A DNA stretch of 64,000 nucleotides from Pseudomonadota bacterium (lineage in GTDB: Bacteria; Pseudomonadota; Gammaproteobacteria; Xanthomonadales; Rhodanobacteraceae). Position 1 is the first letter of the stretch. Each line of letters opens with the position of its first letter. This document shows positions 1-33,000 of this stretch, in pieces. Made by a program: the position numbers. The stretch spans positions 37,000 through 100,999 of the forward strand of contig JAFEFO010000040.1 of NCBI GenBank assembly GCA_018240565.1, in the 5' to 3' direction.

Positions 1-3000
1 TGGACAAGCTGCCCAAGGATCCGTGGGGGCGCGTCTATTTGTACCTGCATCCGGGCACGCACGGCGATATCGACGTGTTCACCTATGGCGCGGATGGCAA
101 GCCGGGCGGGGAAGGCGAGAATGCGGATGTGGGCAACTGGGAATGACGTCTGCCGGGAAATGTCGCCCGCGCGCGCCGAAATTTTTGCCCCCTCTCCCCC
201 ATGCGTCAGCAAGGGGGAGATGGCGGGGGTGAGGGGGATGTGCATCACGTTTCTCGAACGATTGCGCGGCTTTCGGCGTTGCCCCCTCACCCCAACCCTC
301 TCCCCCATCGTAAGAAGCGCGATGGGGGAGAGGGGGAAAAATCAGGGATTCACCTTGATTGAATTGCTCGTGGTCGTGGTGATCCTCGCCGTGCTCGCCG
401 GCGCGCTGACGCTGGCCATGGGCGGTCTCGGCGGCGAACGCCAGCTCGAACAGCAGGCGCGTCGCACGCAGGCCCTGATCGACTACGCCTGCGAGCAGGC
501 CGAACTCGTCGGCCGCGACATCGGCGTGAGCATCGATCGTCATGGCTATCGCTTCAGTCGCCGCAATGGCGCCGCCTGGCTGCCGCTGGAACACGACGAA
601 TTGCGCCCGCGCGAATTCCTCACCGGCACGCAGGCGGCTTTGAGCAGCGACGGCCATGCCATCGCCGTCGGCGATGATTTTCCGGAAAAGCCGCAGTTGG
701 TGTGCTTCGCGTCCGGTGAGCTGACGCCGTTCCGGCTCGAACTGCGACTGGCCGATCTTGCGCAGGGCTGGCGACTGGATGGCGCGCCGGATGCCACATT
801 GAAAGTGGTCGCGGTGGCGGTGCATGCGCACTAATAGTACGCGCTGGCTGTTGCTAAGCTCGCGCGTCCAGCGCTCGCCAAGCAACTCGGCCGCTCGCTC
901 CTGCTCGCGGCGTTCGCCCACGCGCGCGATGCGCTTCAACGCATCGCGCAGGCGCCTGGGCTTCACCCTTCTCGAGGTGCTGATTGCGCTGCTCGTGCTC
1001 GCGCTCGCCTTGCTCGCGTTGTCGCGCACCGCCGCCAACCAGGTCGATGCCTTCGGCGCACTGCGCGAGCGCACGGTCGCCGGCTGGCTTGCCGCGGACG
1101 TGTTGGCGCAGACGCGCCTTGCCACGCCGTTCCCGGCCACCGGCACCAGCGACGGCCGGCGTCGCTTCGGCGGCCGCGACTGGCGCTACGACATCGTCGT
1201 GCAAGGCACGCCGGTGGCCTCGATCCGGCGCATCGACGTGCATGTTTACGCCGCGGATGATCCGAAATCGCCGATTGCGACCTTGACCGGTTTCGGTGGC
1301 CAGGACCTGATGCCGTGAAGCGTGGCTTTACCCTCATCGAGTTGCTGGTGGCGATGGCGGTGTTCTCGATCATGGCCGCGCTGGCTTATGGCGGACTCAA
1401 TTCCATCGCGCGCACGCGCGGCGAACTGGCCAGGCAGGAAGCGGATTTCGGTAATCTCATGCGCGCCATCGGCTCGCTCGAGCGCGACTTGAACGGCATC
1501 GTGGCGCGACCGGTGCGCGGCACGGCAGGTCAGGAATTGCCCGCGGTGCTTGGCGCCAGCGATCACATCGAGCTCACGCGCCTGGGCTTTGCCAATCCGC
1601 AGGCCGAGTCGCGCTCGAATCTGCAGCGCGTGTTCTACGAACTGGATGGCCACAAGCTCGAGCGCGGCCGTTACGCCGTGCTCGATCGCGCCGCCAACAG
1701 CACGCCGCAGGTGGACGACCTCAAGGTGGCCACCGAAGACTTCCGCCTGCGTTACCTTGACGGCGCATCCGGACAGTGGCTGGATGCGTGGCCGCCGCCA
1801 CAGTCGGCGCCGGAACTCCTGCCGCGCGCGATCGGCTGGCAACTGCGCACGAAGCAGCATGGTGAAATCACCGGCACGGTCGAGCTTGTGTCCGCCTGGC
1901 CCACGCAAGCCGCCGGCCTGGTGACGCCGGCGCCGCAAAACCCGATCGGCACGCCGCTGCCGCCGTTGCCGCCGCCGCCGGGTGGCGTGCGATGATCCAA
2001 TCCACATTTCCACAATGCGGCAAAATGCAGCGTGGCGTCGCCTTGCTCGTCGCCCTGCTCGTGGTCGCGCTGGCGACGGTGTTGATTGCAGGCCTGCTCG
2101 ATCGCGGCGGGCTCATGGCGGCGCGCACGCGCAATGCGCTGCGTGCGCAGCAGGCGCAGGCCTATGCGCGCGGCCTGGAAAATTACGCCGCCGAAGTGCT
2201 CACGCGCGCACAGGCGCAAGGTGTGGGCTACGACGCCGCCGACAGCATCTGGGCGATCCCGTTGCCGCCCACGCCCGTGCCCGGCGGCACCATCGCGGCG
2301 CAGATGGCCGATCTCAATGGTCGCTTCAATCTCAACAATCTCGATCCGACTTACGACACGCAAGGCGTTTGGCGCGGCAAGTTCGTCCTGCTGCTGACTG
2401 CGCTCAAGCTCGATCCGGCCATCGCAGGCCATGTCGTTGCCTGGATGGATGCGAATGCGGCGACCAGCACGGACGATCAGTTCTATCTCGCCCAGCCGGT
2501 GCCGTACCGGCGCGCGGGTCGGGAGTTCGCCCATGCGTCCGAATTGCGCCTCGTTGCCGGCGTCGATGGCGACGCCTATGCGGCGCTTGCGCCCTTCGTG
2601 ACGGCGCTGCCGGAAGGCACGCCGATCAACGTCAACACGGCCAGCGTGCCGGTGCTGATGACGCTGTCGCCGAACGTGACGCGCGAGATGGCGCAGGCGA
2701 TCTGGCAGCAAGGCGGCGCGCATTTCACCGGTGTCGATCAGGTGCTCAAGGCGCAGCCGGCGCTGGCGGTGATCGAACATCCGGAATGCTTCGATGTGCG
2801 CAGCAGCTATTTTTTCGCCCGTGGATTGATCACGCTCGACGGCCTGCCGTTCGAGTTCGACAGTTTGATCGAGCGGCGCAACGGCGGCGCCAATGGCGGC
2901 ATACACGTGCTGCAGCGCAGTCGCGGTGGCGATTGACGCGCACCCGGCGCAATGCCGTATCCTGCGCGATTGCGTCGACACGGGAGGGGGTCATGCAACA

Positions 3001-30000: not shown

Positions 30001-33000
30001 CATGACCGATGGCATCCTGCTCGCCGAGACGCAATCCGATCCCTGGCTCAACGCCTACGACACGATCATCCTCGACGAGGCGCACGAGCGCAGCCTGAAT
30101 ATCGACTTCCTGCTGGGTTACTTGAAACGCCTGCTCGCGCGCCGACGCGATCTGAAACTCATCGTCACCTCGGCGACGATCGACACGAGCCTGTTCGCGC
30201 GGCATTTCGATACCGCACCGGTCATCGAAGTCGAAGGCCGCGGCTATCCGGTCGAGGTGCGCTGGCGGCCCATTGAAATGTTCGCGGCCAACGGCCGCGG
30301 CACGCGTCCCTCGCCCGCGAAGCGGGAGAGGGGGGAACCGTCGGCGGATGCCGACGGTGGGGTGAGGGCGGTTGCACGCATCGAGTTGAATGTGGCGGAG
30401 CAGATCGCTGCCGCACTGGATGAAATCACCGCCGAGGATCCGCGCGGCGACGTGCTGGTGTTCCTGCCCGGCGAGCGCGAGATCCGTGATGCGCACCTGG
30501 CGCTGACGCGGCGCCGCTATCGTTCGACGGACGTGCTTGCGCTGTATGCGCGCCTGTCCGCCGCCGAACAGGATCGGGTGTTCAAGCCCGGAGCGGGACG
30601 CCGCATCGTGCTTGCCACCAATGTGGCGGAAACCTCGCTCACCGTGCCGCGCATCAAGTACGTCGTCGACACCGGCACCGCGCGCGTGAAGCGCTACTCG
30701 CCGCGCAACCAGCTCGAACGCCTGCACATCGAGCCGATCTCGCAGGCGGCCGCGGACCAGCGCAAGGGCCGCTGCGGCCGCGTCGGTCCGGGTATTTGCG
30801 TACGCCTGTACAGCGAAGAGGATTTCGCGGCGCGTGCGCGCTATTCCGATCCGGAAATCCTGCGTTCCTCGCTCGCGGGCGTGATCCTGCGCATGTTGAG
30901 CTTGAAGCTCGGCGAGGTCGAGAAGTTCCCGTTCGTCGAAGCGCCAGACGCGCGCGCAATCAATGACGGCTGGCGGCGTTTGTTCGAGTTGCAGGCGGTG
31001 GATGCGGACAAGCGCCTGACGCCGACAGGACGGGAAATGGCGCGCTGGCCGATCGACGTCGCACTCGCGAGGATGCTGATCGAAGCGCAGCGCAAGGACG
31101 CGCTGCGCGAAATGCTGATACTCGCGGCATTCCTGTCGATCCAGGATCCGCGCGAGCGACCCGCCGATGCGCGCCAGGCCGCCGATGCCGCGCATGCGCA
31201 ATGGGCGGATCCGAAATCCGATTTCATCGGCGTGCTCAATCTGTGGCATGCGCATGCCAGCGCGCACGAGGAACTCACTCAATCGAAATTGCGCGACTGG
31301 TGCCGCGAACGGTTCCTTTCGTATTTGCGCATGCGCGAATGGCGCGAGCTGCATCGGCAGTTGTTGTTGATTGGCGGCGAATCCGAAGGACCAACGCCTA
31401 CGTCCCCCTCTCCCCCATTGCGGGCAATGGGGGAGAGGGCTGGGGTGAGGGGGAGGCGCAGCGGTATTTCCGCAACATCGAATCCGCTCGGGATGTCACC
31501 CCCTCACCCAACTCTCTCCCCCAACACGGTTGGGGGAGAGGGCTTGTCCTACGAAGCGATCCACCGCTGTCTGCTCGCCGGCTGGCCAACACAGGTCGGG
31601 CGCCGCGACGAACGCGGCGAGTATCGCGGTACGCGCGAGCGCAAGTTCCGCGTCTTTCCGGGATCGGCCTTGGCAAAGGCGCCGCCGCAATGGTTGCTGG
31701 CCGGCCAGATCATCGACCTGCAAAAAGTCTATGCCATGTCGTGTGCGCGCATCGAGCCGGAATGGGTCGAACAACAGGCCGCGCATCTGGTCAAGAAGTC
31801 ATGGCGCGATCCGCACTGGTCGCGCAAGCGTGGCGCCGTGCTCGCGTTCGAGCAGGTCACGCTGTTCGGCTTGACGCTGGTGGAAAAGCGCAGCGTGGCG
31901 TTTGCCACGCAGGATCCGGCGGCGGCGCATGAGGTGTTCATGCGCGAGGCGCTGGTACGCGGCGATATCGATTGCCGTGCCGATTGCGTGCGCGCGAATG
32001 CGCGGGTGCTCGCGCAGGCGCAGGAACTGGAAGCCAAGCAACGCCGTAGTGGATTGATTCGCGGCGAAGACGAACTTGCCGCATTCTTCTCCGGCAAGCT
32101 GCCCGCGGACATTTCCACCGCTGCCGCGTTCGACGCCTGGTATCGGCGTGCGCCAGCAGCAGAACAGGCGGCGATGCGCTGGTCGCTGGATGATGTTCTC
32201 GCCAGCACGCCGGGTTTGCGCGCGTCGGACTTCCCCGCAACGATGGCCTTTGCCGGCCATCGCCTGAAACTCGAGTACCGTTTCGTGCCGGGCGACGCGG
32301 CGGATGGCGTGACGTTGCAGGTGCCGCTGGCGTTCGTCAATGCGGTATCCGCATTGTCCTGCGATTGGCTGGTTCCGGGATTGCTCGCCGACAAGGTCGC
32401 CGAACTGATCCGCGGCCTGCCCAAGTCCCTGCGCCGCAATTTCGTGCCGGCGCCGGATTTTGCGCGCGCATTCGCGCAAGCCGAGGCGCCGCGCGACGAA
32501 AGCGTCATCAAGGCACTGGCCGGCTATCTGCAACGCGTAACCGGCGTGGAAGTGTCCGAACGCGATTTCGCAGCGATCGAACTACCGGCGCACCTGGCGA
32601 TGCGCTTTCGCGTGCACGACGAGCAAGGCAAGACTCTGGCCGAAGGCCGCGACATCGATGCGCTGCGCGGCGAGTGGGGCGCGGCGGCGAACGCGGCGTT
32701 CTCACGTCATGCCGATGTCGAGTTGGCGCGCGAGGACGTAGCCGAATTCGATTTCGACGAGATCTCGCCCGTGGTGACCGGCGCGGGCGGTGTCGCTGCC
32801 TATCCCGCGCTGGTCGATCTGGGCGAGTCCGTCGCGCTGCGCGTATTCGAGCGTGCCGATGAAGCGCGCGATGCACACGCAGGGGGCGTCGAACACTTGC
32901 TGCGGCGCGCGCTGCGCGAGACGATCAAGCAGGCGAGAAGGCAACTTCCCATCGAGCGCAAGCTGGCCTTGAAATACGCCGGCATCGCCAGCGTCGACGA

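Follow-up and report, generated by a model that had tools for sequence, protein, structure and literature searches.

The 64,000-nucleotide (nt) stretch of Rhodanobacteraceae contig JAFEFO010000040.1 analyzed here (the window; G+C content, 65%) carries a dispersed palindromic repeat, family A, with copies at the gspG-gspH and mdtB-mdtC junctions and within hrpA. Judged by their block layout, these copies are inverted pairs of the known BoxC/PIT/TMECO intrastrand-triplex motif repeat, also known as HPG1/2. The first-pass annotation had noted that all four copies are read in the same element-relative frame and had proposed that one frame is stop-free by construction, either because the element evolved to be inserted into coding or coupled contexts or because only such insertions persist. 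The four copies are present, and the peptides quoted for them are exactly reproduced by translation. We nevertheless consider it likely that family A is a known repeat that is sometimes translated and that the shared frame arises from stop-poor composition, survivorship, and chance. The built-in coding frame fails, and nothing new follows from that claim. What we retain are the copies lying in frame within housekeeping genes across many taxa, the conservation of the arms in hrpA, the start codon probably donated to gspH, and the duplicated ATGA at the mdtB-mdtC junction, which make the motif a testable source of protein-linker variation, start-codon replacement, and operon-junction rearrangement.

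Family A comprises three composite palindromes and one degenerate single unit, all of one repeat (Table 1). The window unit has the layout CCCCCTCTCCCCC-loop-GGGGGAGAGGG-NN-GGGGTGAGGGGG, and in a pair a spacer of ~45 nt separates such a unit from an inverted one, for a total of ~125 to 160 nt. The unit, in its general form CCCTCTCCC-loop-GGGAGAGGG-NN-GGGGTGAGGG, agrees with the E. coli TMECO table and with the paired configuration given there (Table 1 of PMC4666352). When compared with the three blocks of BoxC/PIT/TMECO (a CCCTC(T/G)CCC C-block, a short loop, a GGGAGAGGG G-block, 2 to 3 nt, and a GGG(T/A)GAGGG G-block), four of the six paired window units match in full. The deviations are a G-block mismatch (GGGGGAGATGG) together with a 1-nt linker in the left gspH unit and a second loop of 14 nt in the left mdt unit. 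The single unit at hrpA site 1 reads CCCTCGCCCG-CGAA-GCGGGAGAGGGG, followed by a 25-nt inner hairpin that widens the second loop and by GGGGTGAGGG, and is matched weakly by nhmmer (E value of 0.37). A scan of the 64 kb with an nhmmer profile built from the six paired units found no further copies, and Rfam at gathering thresholds gave no match over the whole window. Terminal inverted repeats are present: the outer arms are reverse-complementary and continue into ATTTTT/AAAAAT or GGTTTTC/GAAGAAC. For RNA of the pairs, folding prediction gives a structure of two terminal hairpins and a long-range GGGGTGAGGGG/CCCCTCACCCC stem, with predicted energies of −99.7 kcal/mol (z score, −8.0) for pair 1, −98.7 kcal/mol (−11.1) for pair 2, and −96.5 kcal/mol (−6.9) for pair 3.

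The exact 23-mer GGGGAGAGGGYTGGGGTGAGGGG was found at at least 120 loci in the genome collection and at least 120 in the metagenome collection. The genome matches listed include Bordetella, Pseudomonas, Dyella, Rhodanobacter, Bradyrhizobium, Enterobacter, and Sphingomonas, as well as Planctomycetota, Chloroflexota, Acidobacteriota, and Verrucomicrobia. Among the matches listed, an inverted partner lies within 200 nt of 120 of 231 units, with a median gap of 34.5 nt. Because paired units are so common, the “palindrome of palindromes” described in the first-pass annotation is the usual form of the motif. The repeat is also dispersed: the 64 kb contain three pairs plus a single unit, and more copies, with different flanks, occur on separate sludge contigs.

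This motif was described as BoxC (Bachellier), then as PIT elements (Hoyne & Maher 2000, 2002), and then as TMECO (Holder et al. 2015, PMC4666352), and the HPG1/HPG2 G-quadruplex-hairpin-duplex switch motifs are identical E. coli sequences (Kaplan et al. 2016, PMC5100583). An intrastrand purine-motif triplex (or a G-quadruplex or hairpin) formed in vitro by the G-rich strand is a feature of BoxC/PIT/TMECO. The E. coli K-12 genome contains 23 copies, of which five occur as inverted pairs; more than 260 genomes carry the motif, which is linked to local genomic instability, and the E. coli copies are stated to be “always located intergenically” (PMC4666352, PMC5100583). The window copies have in common with BoxC/PIT/TMECO the three-block layout CCCTCTCCC-loop-GGGAGAGGG-2-3 nt-GGGTGAGGG, dispersed copies, frequent inverted pairs, a broad taxonomic range, and variable presence among close relatives. 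Their T-rich 5′ flanks resemble each other as well (GGTTTTCT-CCCTCTCCC in E. coli and GGTTTTCGCA-CCTCTCCC in the window). In contrast to the E. coli copies, those of the window include two in frame within hrpA, one putative start-codon donor, and one at a gene overlap, and they have extended stems (CCCCCAT/ATGGGGG) and longer spacers (~45 nt versus ~16 to 20 nt). The intergenic-only location describes the E. coli copies and is not a defining feature of the motif. For HPG1/HPG2, opposite-strand pairs less than 50 bp apart have been noted as well; these motifs are said to flank open reading frames (ORFs), with none inside, and their authors proposed a regulatory role (PMC5100583).

The open frames of the element follow from its composition. 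Because each stop codon requires a T followed by purines, arms made purely of G/A or purely of C/T contain no stop codons. The sole stop of the core is the TGA in GGGG-TGA-GGGG (GGGGTGAGGG), and the remaining stops of the window copies lie in loops and spacers. This TGA shuts a single G-strand frame of three and leaves all three C-strand frames unaffected, so that a unit has five open frames out of six; in a pair, two of three frames are typically open on each strand. The window copies have three to five of six frames open, against a mean of 3.4 to 4.5 in random window segments of equal length (P of reaching the observed number, 0.48 to 0.93). Pair 1 alone tends above mononucleotide shuffles (4 versus 1.8 open frames; P = 0.066). 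Openness is a result of base composition and not a built-in coding frame. The proposal of a frame that is stop-free by construction thus survives only in the trivial sense that the core is stop-poor, since no single frame is privileged and random segments are equally open.

The agreement in frame among the window copies does not exceed what chance would give. In the G-rich orientation no more than two frames are open, and the hrpA copies had these two to choose from. The gspH frame is forced if, as is most likely, the ATG of the arm serves as the start, and the mdtB/mdtC frame was selected for being open. The readings are largely alike, but the left arm gives PSP in gspH and hrpA and PLP at mdtB/mdtC, the C-box gives PLT or PPH, and the last arm gives GERG or GGEG. 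Moreover, reading in the frame of a host gene applies to the two hrpA copies alone; the mdtB/mdtC reading is in a third frame, and that of gspH lies almost entirely upstream of any plausible start.

Copies in other genes use all open frames. The sample consisted of 258 exact-match units among the matches listed for other genomes and metagenomes (two samples, of 131 and 127 units). A unit was taken as intragenic when a stop-to-stop ORF extended at least 70 codons on either side and the GC1/2/3 pattern of that frame was coding-like in both flanks. By this test 17 units (~6.6%) lie in frame within genuine genes, and this share is a minimum, since short contigs are frequent in the metagenomes. For 16 of the 17 units, Pfam domains flank or enclose the insert, and the 17th (L096) was assigned as UvrA-like by eye. 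Five units use frame G0, which gives the peptide GERxGVRG (NuoE/F-like, L045; IleS, L054; M1 peptidase, L243; RsmB/F, L246; and ImuB-like, L241), and two use G1, giving GEGWGEG (VgrG, L027; and the pyruvate dehydrogenase [PDH] E2 linker, L152). On the C-rich strand, four use C0, giving PLTPxLSP (UvrA-like, L096; DAO-GCV_T, L138; GT87, L176; and DUF5693, L230), four use C1, giving PHPNPLP (CtaA, L046; MnmE, L067; IleS, L079; and MiaB-like radical SAM, L211), and two use C2, giving PSPQPSP (Mfd of Bordetella, L001; and CheA, L111). These counts of 5, 2, 4, 4, and 2 are compatible with an even spread, and the expectation that copies at other genic sites keep to one frame is not borne out. Both outcomes that the first-pass annotation had named as refuting its proposal, frames open through composition and differing frames at other genic sites, are what the data show. 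An ATG directly 5′ of the motif was found in 2 of the 231 units listed, which rules out the arm ATG as a general feature of the motif. With ~6 to 7% of units in conserved proteins of several phyla, the intragenic copies correct the published E. coli picture of an exclusively intergenic element. They also offer annotators an explanation for segments such as GERVGVRG, GEGWGEG, PLTPTLSP, PHPNPLP, and PSPQPSP in proteins and for miscalled starts. The genes of the UvrA-like ABC ATPase (L096) and the ImuB-like protein (L241) each hold several in-frame units at differing positions and in differing frames.

In the window, hrpA encodes a DEAH/RHA helicase and is stop-free through both of its copies, the site-1 unit reading RPSPAKRERG...GGVRA in the hrpA frame. 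Compared with E. coli HrpA, which has neither insert, the protein has ~29 extra residues between amino acids (aa) 259 and 300 (site 1) and an unmatched block of ~43 residues at aa 634 to 676 (site 2). Pfam places site 1 between RecA1 (aa 81 to 229) and Helicase_C (aa 305 to 429) and site 2 between the HA2_C ratchet domain (aa 521 to 576) and the OB fold (aa 687 to 761); by these domain assignments, both inserts are in interdomain linkers. An exact look-up gave no record of the window HrpA, and orthologues found by similarity (P0001 to P0120) were taken instead. Their length varies at two hot spots, which are exactly the two insert sites. A bare 39-residue site-2 linker (...ESGWKQNAEAANFEAIH...) is found in 34 of the 120 orthologues, relative to which pair 3 adds 45 residues; ~25 orthologues have site-2 inserts of the SPSPP..GERAGVRG..PPHPTLSP..GGEG type, and others have peptides from other repeat families. 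In a neighbor-joining tree the site-2 inserts are scattered, and sequences with and without them lie close together, a pattern that would result either from several gains at a hot spot or from one gain and repeated precise losses. At site 1, a related insertion is common to many orthologues and looks like an old, shared, and diverged insert.

At the DNA level, site 2 of hrpA is empty in one relative (L121), holds an orthologous insert with an identical junction and a partly similar spacer in another (L122), and has other loops and another spacer in a third (L123). Between the window and L122, the arms of pair 3 are identical at 84 of 87 nt (96.6%), whereas the loops and spacer are identical at 31 of 54 nt (57%) and the flanking gene at 80.9%. 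Third codon positions within the arms are identical at 27 of 29 sites, against 60% at the fourfold sites of hrpA (binomial P of ~8 × 10⁻⁵). Furthermore, GGG accounts for five of the seven glycine codons inside the element and for 3 of 68 outside it. Conserved arms with atypical codons, joined by a spacer whose peptide drifts, indicate that the constraint is on the nucleic acid and not on the peptide, and it could have come about by selection, by gene conversion from other copies, or by recent insertion. Conservation of nucleotides over peptide is the opposite of what coding adaptation predicts.

A sludge-metagenome contig that is ~97% identical to the window retains pair 3 of hrpA without gaps. 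No empty or excised hrpA allele was seen in the sludge and wastewater runs, where contigs either retain the element or break at it. A contig of a related strain (run X1) has 33 differences (~10%) in 31063 to 31387 and is then identical for 516 nt (31388 to 31903, including the element); such a mosaic is suggestive of recombination within hrpA. The hrpA linkers also host peptides of other repeats. In alignment columns 325 to 540 and 945 to 1175 of the orthologues, which are 1,280 to 1,474 aa long, these include GIRDSRLG...SRIPNP, WGQSHFS...KNDSDP, SLPFKGRAGEGMV...HPHPNPPLEGEG, and PSPAQRGKVAEGRKGA/GEGARRAEGG.

The copy between mdtB and mdtC occupies a former gene overlap. A 4-nt overlap of mdtB and mdtC (ATGA or GTGA) in the relatives L121 and L123 represents the empty site, and in the window the junction has gained 146 nt. 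There, mdtB (22419 to 25646) is in frame 0, mdtC (25789 to 28914) is in frame 1, and the frame translated in the first-pass annotation is frame 2. The element is flanked by a 9-nt direct repeat, CGCCATGAA, such as is found by chance at ~0.9% of random positions. Because this duplication copies the ATGA, both mdtB and mdtC are intact. The frame that runs from the duplicated ATG to the duplicated TGA is open and forms an ORF of 49 codons; its ATG overlaps the mdtB stop and its TGA the mdtC start, each time as ATGA. The bridging ORF has no Pfam match. It was rejected as a feature beyond chance, as the ORF by itself is not significant (one frame that long is open in roughly half of random segments). 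Ribosome hand-over from mdtB to mdtC through this ORF would be a plausible route by which the insertion is tolerated. In L122, the closest relative, the mdtB/mdtC junction holds a different G/C-rich palindromic repeat at 3790 to 3945 (CCCCCTTCCGCAGGAAGGGGGATTGAGGGGGATG...).

At gspH, every start codon that precedes the cleavage-site glycine, G(−1), is inside the element. From the candidate ATG in the right arm of pair 1 (Table 1), the N_methyl motif falls at aa 6 to 29. The leaders of gspH homologues are short, mostly MRG↓FTLIEL (with the arrow marking cleavage), and in L125 an orthologous, decayed element has a TTG at the equivalent place, giving MGEKGTNRG↓F. By exclusion and by this orthologue, the ATG at 322 is most likely the start of gspH. 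The translatable part of the element would then be this ATG and four further codons of the right arm (~five codons). The existing gspH call (P0121, 355 to 834) starts at TTG 355 and yields 159 aa without the G↓FTLIEL cleavage/N-methylation motif; it has probably missed a true start that is inside the repeat.

A second repeated segment lies beside a pseudopilin start. Window positions 841 to 960, between the gspH stop (832 to 834) and gspI, are nearly identical to positions 1400 to 1540 of L126 (47 of 51 nt in the stretch compared). The segment continues into a start codon and the leader MRFNASR(K/R)R(S/L)G↓F and precedes gspI in the window and gspH in L126, as if a cassette of 5′ region plus leader had moved or been converted between pseudopilin genes. 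It would be a second instance, beside the triplex-motif (TM) arm at gspH, of a repeated segment that gives a pseudopilin its start.

Taken together, these observations are best accommodated by a repeat that acts at the level of the nucleic acid, with homopurine/homopyrimidine arms that would be kept or homogenized as DNA or RNA while loops and spacer drift. Since the arms are stop-poor, insertions of a multiple of three in tolerant interdomain linkers could survive as linker peptide rich in G, E, R, V, P, S, L, and T, and the hrpA copies are such in-frame insertions. The suggestion that only such insertions persist holds in a trivial sense: inside genes only stop-free inserts of a multiple of three can persist, but no frame is privileged among them. 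At mdtB/mdtC, insertion with a 9-nt duplication, the anatomy of which is plain, leaves the genes intact and the 49-codon ORF, which may pass ribosomes on. At gspH, a lineage-specific ...CCCCCAT/ATGGGGG... arm appears, by exclusion and by the orthologue, now to supply the start codon. The common frame of the window copies would then come from the small number of open frames, from the forced frames at gspH and mdtB/mdtC, and from survivorship.

Several points weigh against this account. Translation of the copies is a prediction from the sequence. All of the ~25 element-bearing HrpA orthologues read the left unit in one frame (GERxGVRG), which, if they represent many independent insertions, hints at a preference of frame or target; the agreement is explained equally well by a single old insertion that was then precisely lost several times. 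Two independent insertions at mdtB/mdtC, those of the window and of L122, both leave an ORF that ends on the mdtC ATGA (in L122 the last residues of MdtB are repeat-encoded and the ORF has 40 codons). This is suggestive of selection for coupling, the probability of its arising by chance being ~0.3. As to the route of spread, in a census of 90 pairs the longest string shared by the flanks reached at least 7 nt in 15 cases versus 7 in controls and at least 9 nt in 4 versus 0, a weak enrichment. At hrpB-mrcB of E. coli, MG1655 carries the pair and HM670 lacks it, no duplication being clear; strain 07_3337 has it in a form collapsed into one hairpin.

Among the alternatives, the pairs could be selected functional RNA or DNA structures, such as an mRNA stabilizer or processing site within operons, a translation modulator, or a site bound by a conserved host protein, with coding effects that are incidental. 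The nucleotide conservation of the arms above the surrounding gene, the very stable folds predicted, the exact 23-mers across phyla, and the position of two of the three pairs within operons (gspG-gspH and mdtB-mdtC) speak for such a role. However, E. coli PIT/BoxC is reported, as cited in PMC4666352, to have no promoter or terminator activity and no in vivo triplex footprint, presence is patchy among close relatives, and the conservation of the arms could come equally from gene conversion among copies or from recent insertion. We regard selected structure as a tentative and somewhat doubtful explanation. A broader proposition makes the BoxC/TM pairs a cross-phylum mobile element resembling a miniature inverted-repeat transposable element (MITE), with ~9-bp duplications, and, through its homopurine/homopyrimidine design, the general bacterial counterpart of the Rickettsia palindromic elements (RPEs). 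Such an element would routinely seed linker peptides in housekeeping proteins, donate starts as at gspH, and make bridging ORFs that rescue coupling as at mdtB-mdtC, its arms being under selection for nucleic acid structure; taken as a whole, we think this rather unlikely.

Much less probable still is an element with one designed stop-free frame, its own ATG, and a peptide of the SP.P..GERG/GVRG/LTPTLSP type, evolved for coding or coupled sites as the first-pass annotation had envisaged. The four window copies are readable in largely one frame, the arms of the local subfamily hold an in-phase ATG of which one is apparently used by gspH, an ORF bridges mdtB and mdtC, and the HrpA orthologues agree on GERxGVRG. 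Against these stand the openness of five of six unit frames by composition, with window copies no more open than random segments, the use of all five open frames by the 17 intragenic copies elsewhere, and the rarity of the ATG 5′ of the motif. Moreover, conservation of the arms is at the level of nucleotides, with codons unusual for the gene, while the spacer peptide drifts, and two of the four window readings lie outside any host-gene frame. That the hrpA inserts are domesticated peptide modules required by the HrpA linker is hardly credible, for although inserts at both hot spots persist in many lineages and that of site 1 appears old and shared, the 39-residue linker is bare in about a third of the close orthologues and holds unrelated repeat-derived peptides in others, the spacer shows no conservation of residues, many copies are in evident decay, and E. 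coli HrpA dispenses with both.

The repeat read here as a sometimes-translated triplex motif resembles several other systems. The RPEs (Ogata et al. 2000; reviewed in PMC10969869) are likewise palindromes of ~100 to 150 bp that are in frame within unrelated housekeeping genes and add peptide segments at tolerant positions. The present motif is also a palindromic repeat in frame within unrelated genes at fold-compatible positions, namely, the hrpA linkers and the other hosts. The sequences are unrelated, however, and this motif spans phyla, whereas the RPEs were reported from Rickettsia; the BoxC motif also uses five frames and is conserved as nucleotides, and so does not have the single-frame peptide specific to a family. 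Intragenic ERIC and small enterobacterial repeats (Delihas 2007) and Cod-2 (Petrillo et al. 2008, PMC2267715) are likewise small structured repeats inside coding sequences, but they have other sequences and other hosts, and neither is the triplex motif. With MITEs and the repetitive extragenic palindromic (REP)/BIME-REPIN elements, family A has in common terminal inverted arms, small size, non-autonomy, hairpin formation, and intergenic locations or locations within operons, and the mdtB/mdtC copy of the window also has a 9-nt flanking duplication. In contrast to MITEs, such duplications do not appear to be general, being only weakly enriched among the 90 pairs; in contrast to REP/REPIN, the window arms, as read, have no GTAG head. 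No parent transposase or insertion sequence (IS) element was seen in the window, and the wider collections were not searched for one. A RAYT gene was not identified either, no search aimed at it having been made.

Table 1 Coordinates of the family A copies and associated features in the window
Feature	Position	Strand	Remarks
Composite pair 1	181-342	.	Between gspG stop (144-146) and gspH; motif and nhmmer matches
Pair 1, left unit	C-arm 188-200; G-arm 213-223; G-box 225-237		Followed by 45-nt spacer
Pair 1, right inverted unit	C-box 282-293; C-arm 296-306; G-arm 324-336		
Pair 1, outer flanks	181-186; 337-342		ATTTTT; AAAAAT
Candidate gspH start ATG	322-324	+	In right arm of pair 1; leader MGERGKNQG, then FTLIEL
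Composite pair 2	25654-25777	.	At former mdtB/mdtC ATGA overlap
Pair 2, arms of first half	25664-25672; 25677-25685; 25700-25709		CCTCTCCCG; CGGGAGAGG; CGGGTGAGGG
Pair 2, arms of second half	25734-25742; 25747-25755; 25760-25768		CCCTCACCC; CCTCTCCCG; CGGGAGAGG
9-nt direct repeat, left	25639-25647	+	CGCCATGAA; includes mdtB stop (TGA 25644-25646)
9-nt direct repeat, right	25785-25793	+	CGCCATGAA; includes mdtC start (ATG 25789-25791)
Bridging ORF, 49 codons	25643-25792	+	Frame 2; ATG at 25643, TGA at 25790-25792
hrpA coding sequence (DEAH/RHA helicase)	29501-33577	+	Host of two copies
Degenerate single unit	30306-30372	+	Within hrpA site 1, aa ~260-299
Composite pair 3	31404-31543	.	In frame within hrpA site 2, aa ~634-676
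Second palindromic family	19807-19945; 22291-22373; 57795-57943; 58652-58770		Inverted arms of 41-59 nt, 73-90% complementary

The window HrpA is closest (80 to 82% identity) to proteins named Rudaea sp. or from metagenome-assembled genomes of Xanthomonadales, and near-identical DNA is present in bioreactor, sludge, and wastewater metagenomes. These resemblances identify the host as a Rudaea-like bacterium of the Xanthomonadales, one that occurs in sludge metagenomes. The window also contains a second, unrelated palindromic family, GTCATTCCGGCA...TGCCGGAATGAC with flanking ...CCAGATTGCATGGA-like arms, in at least four copies (Table 1).

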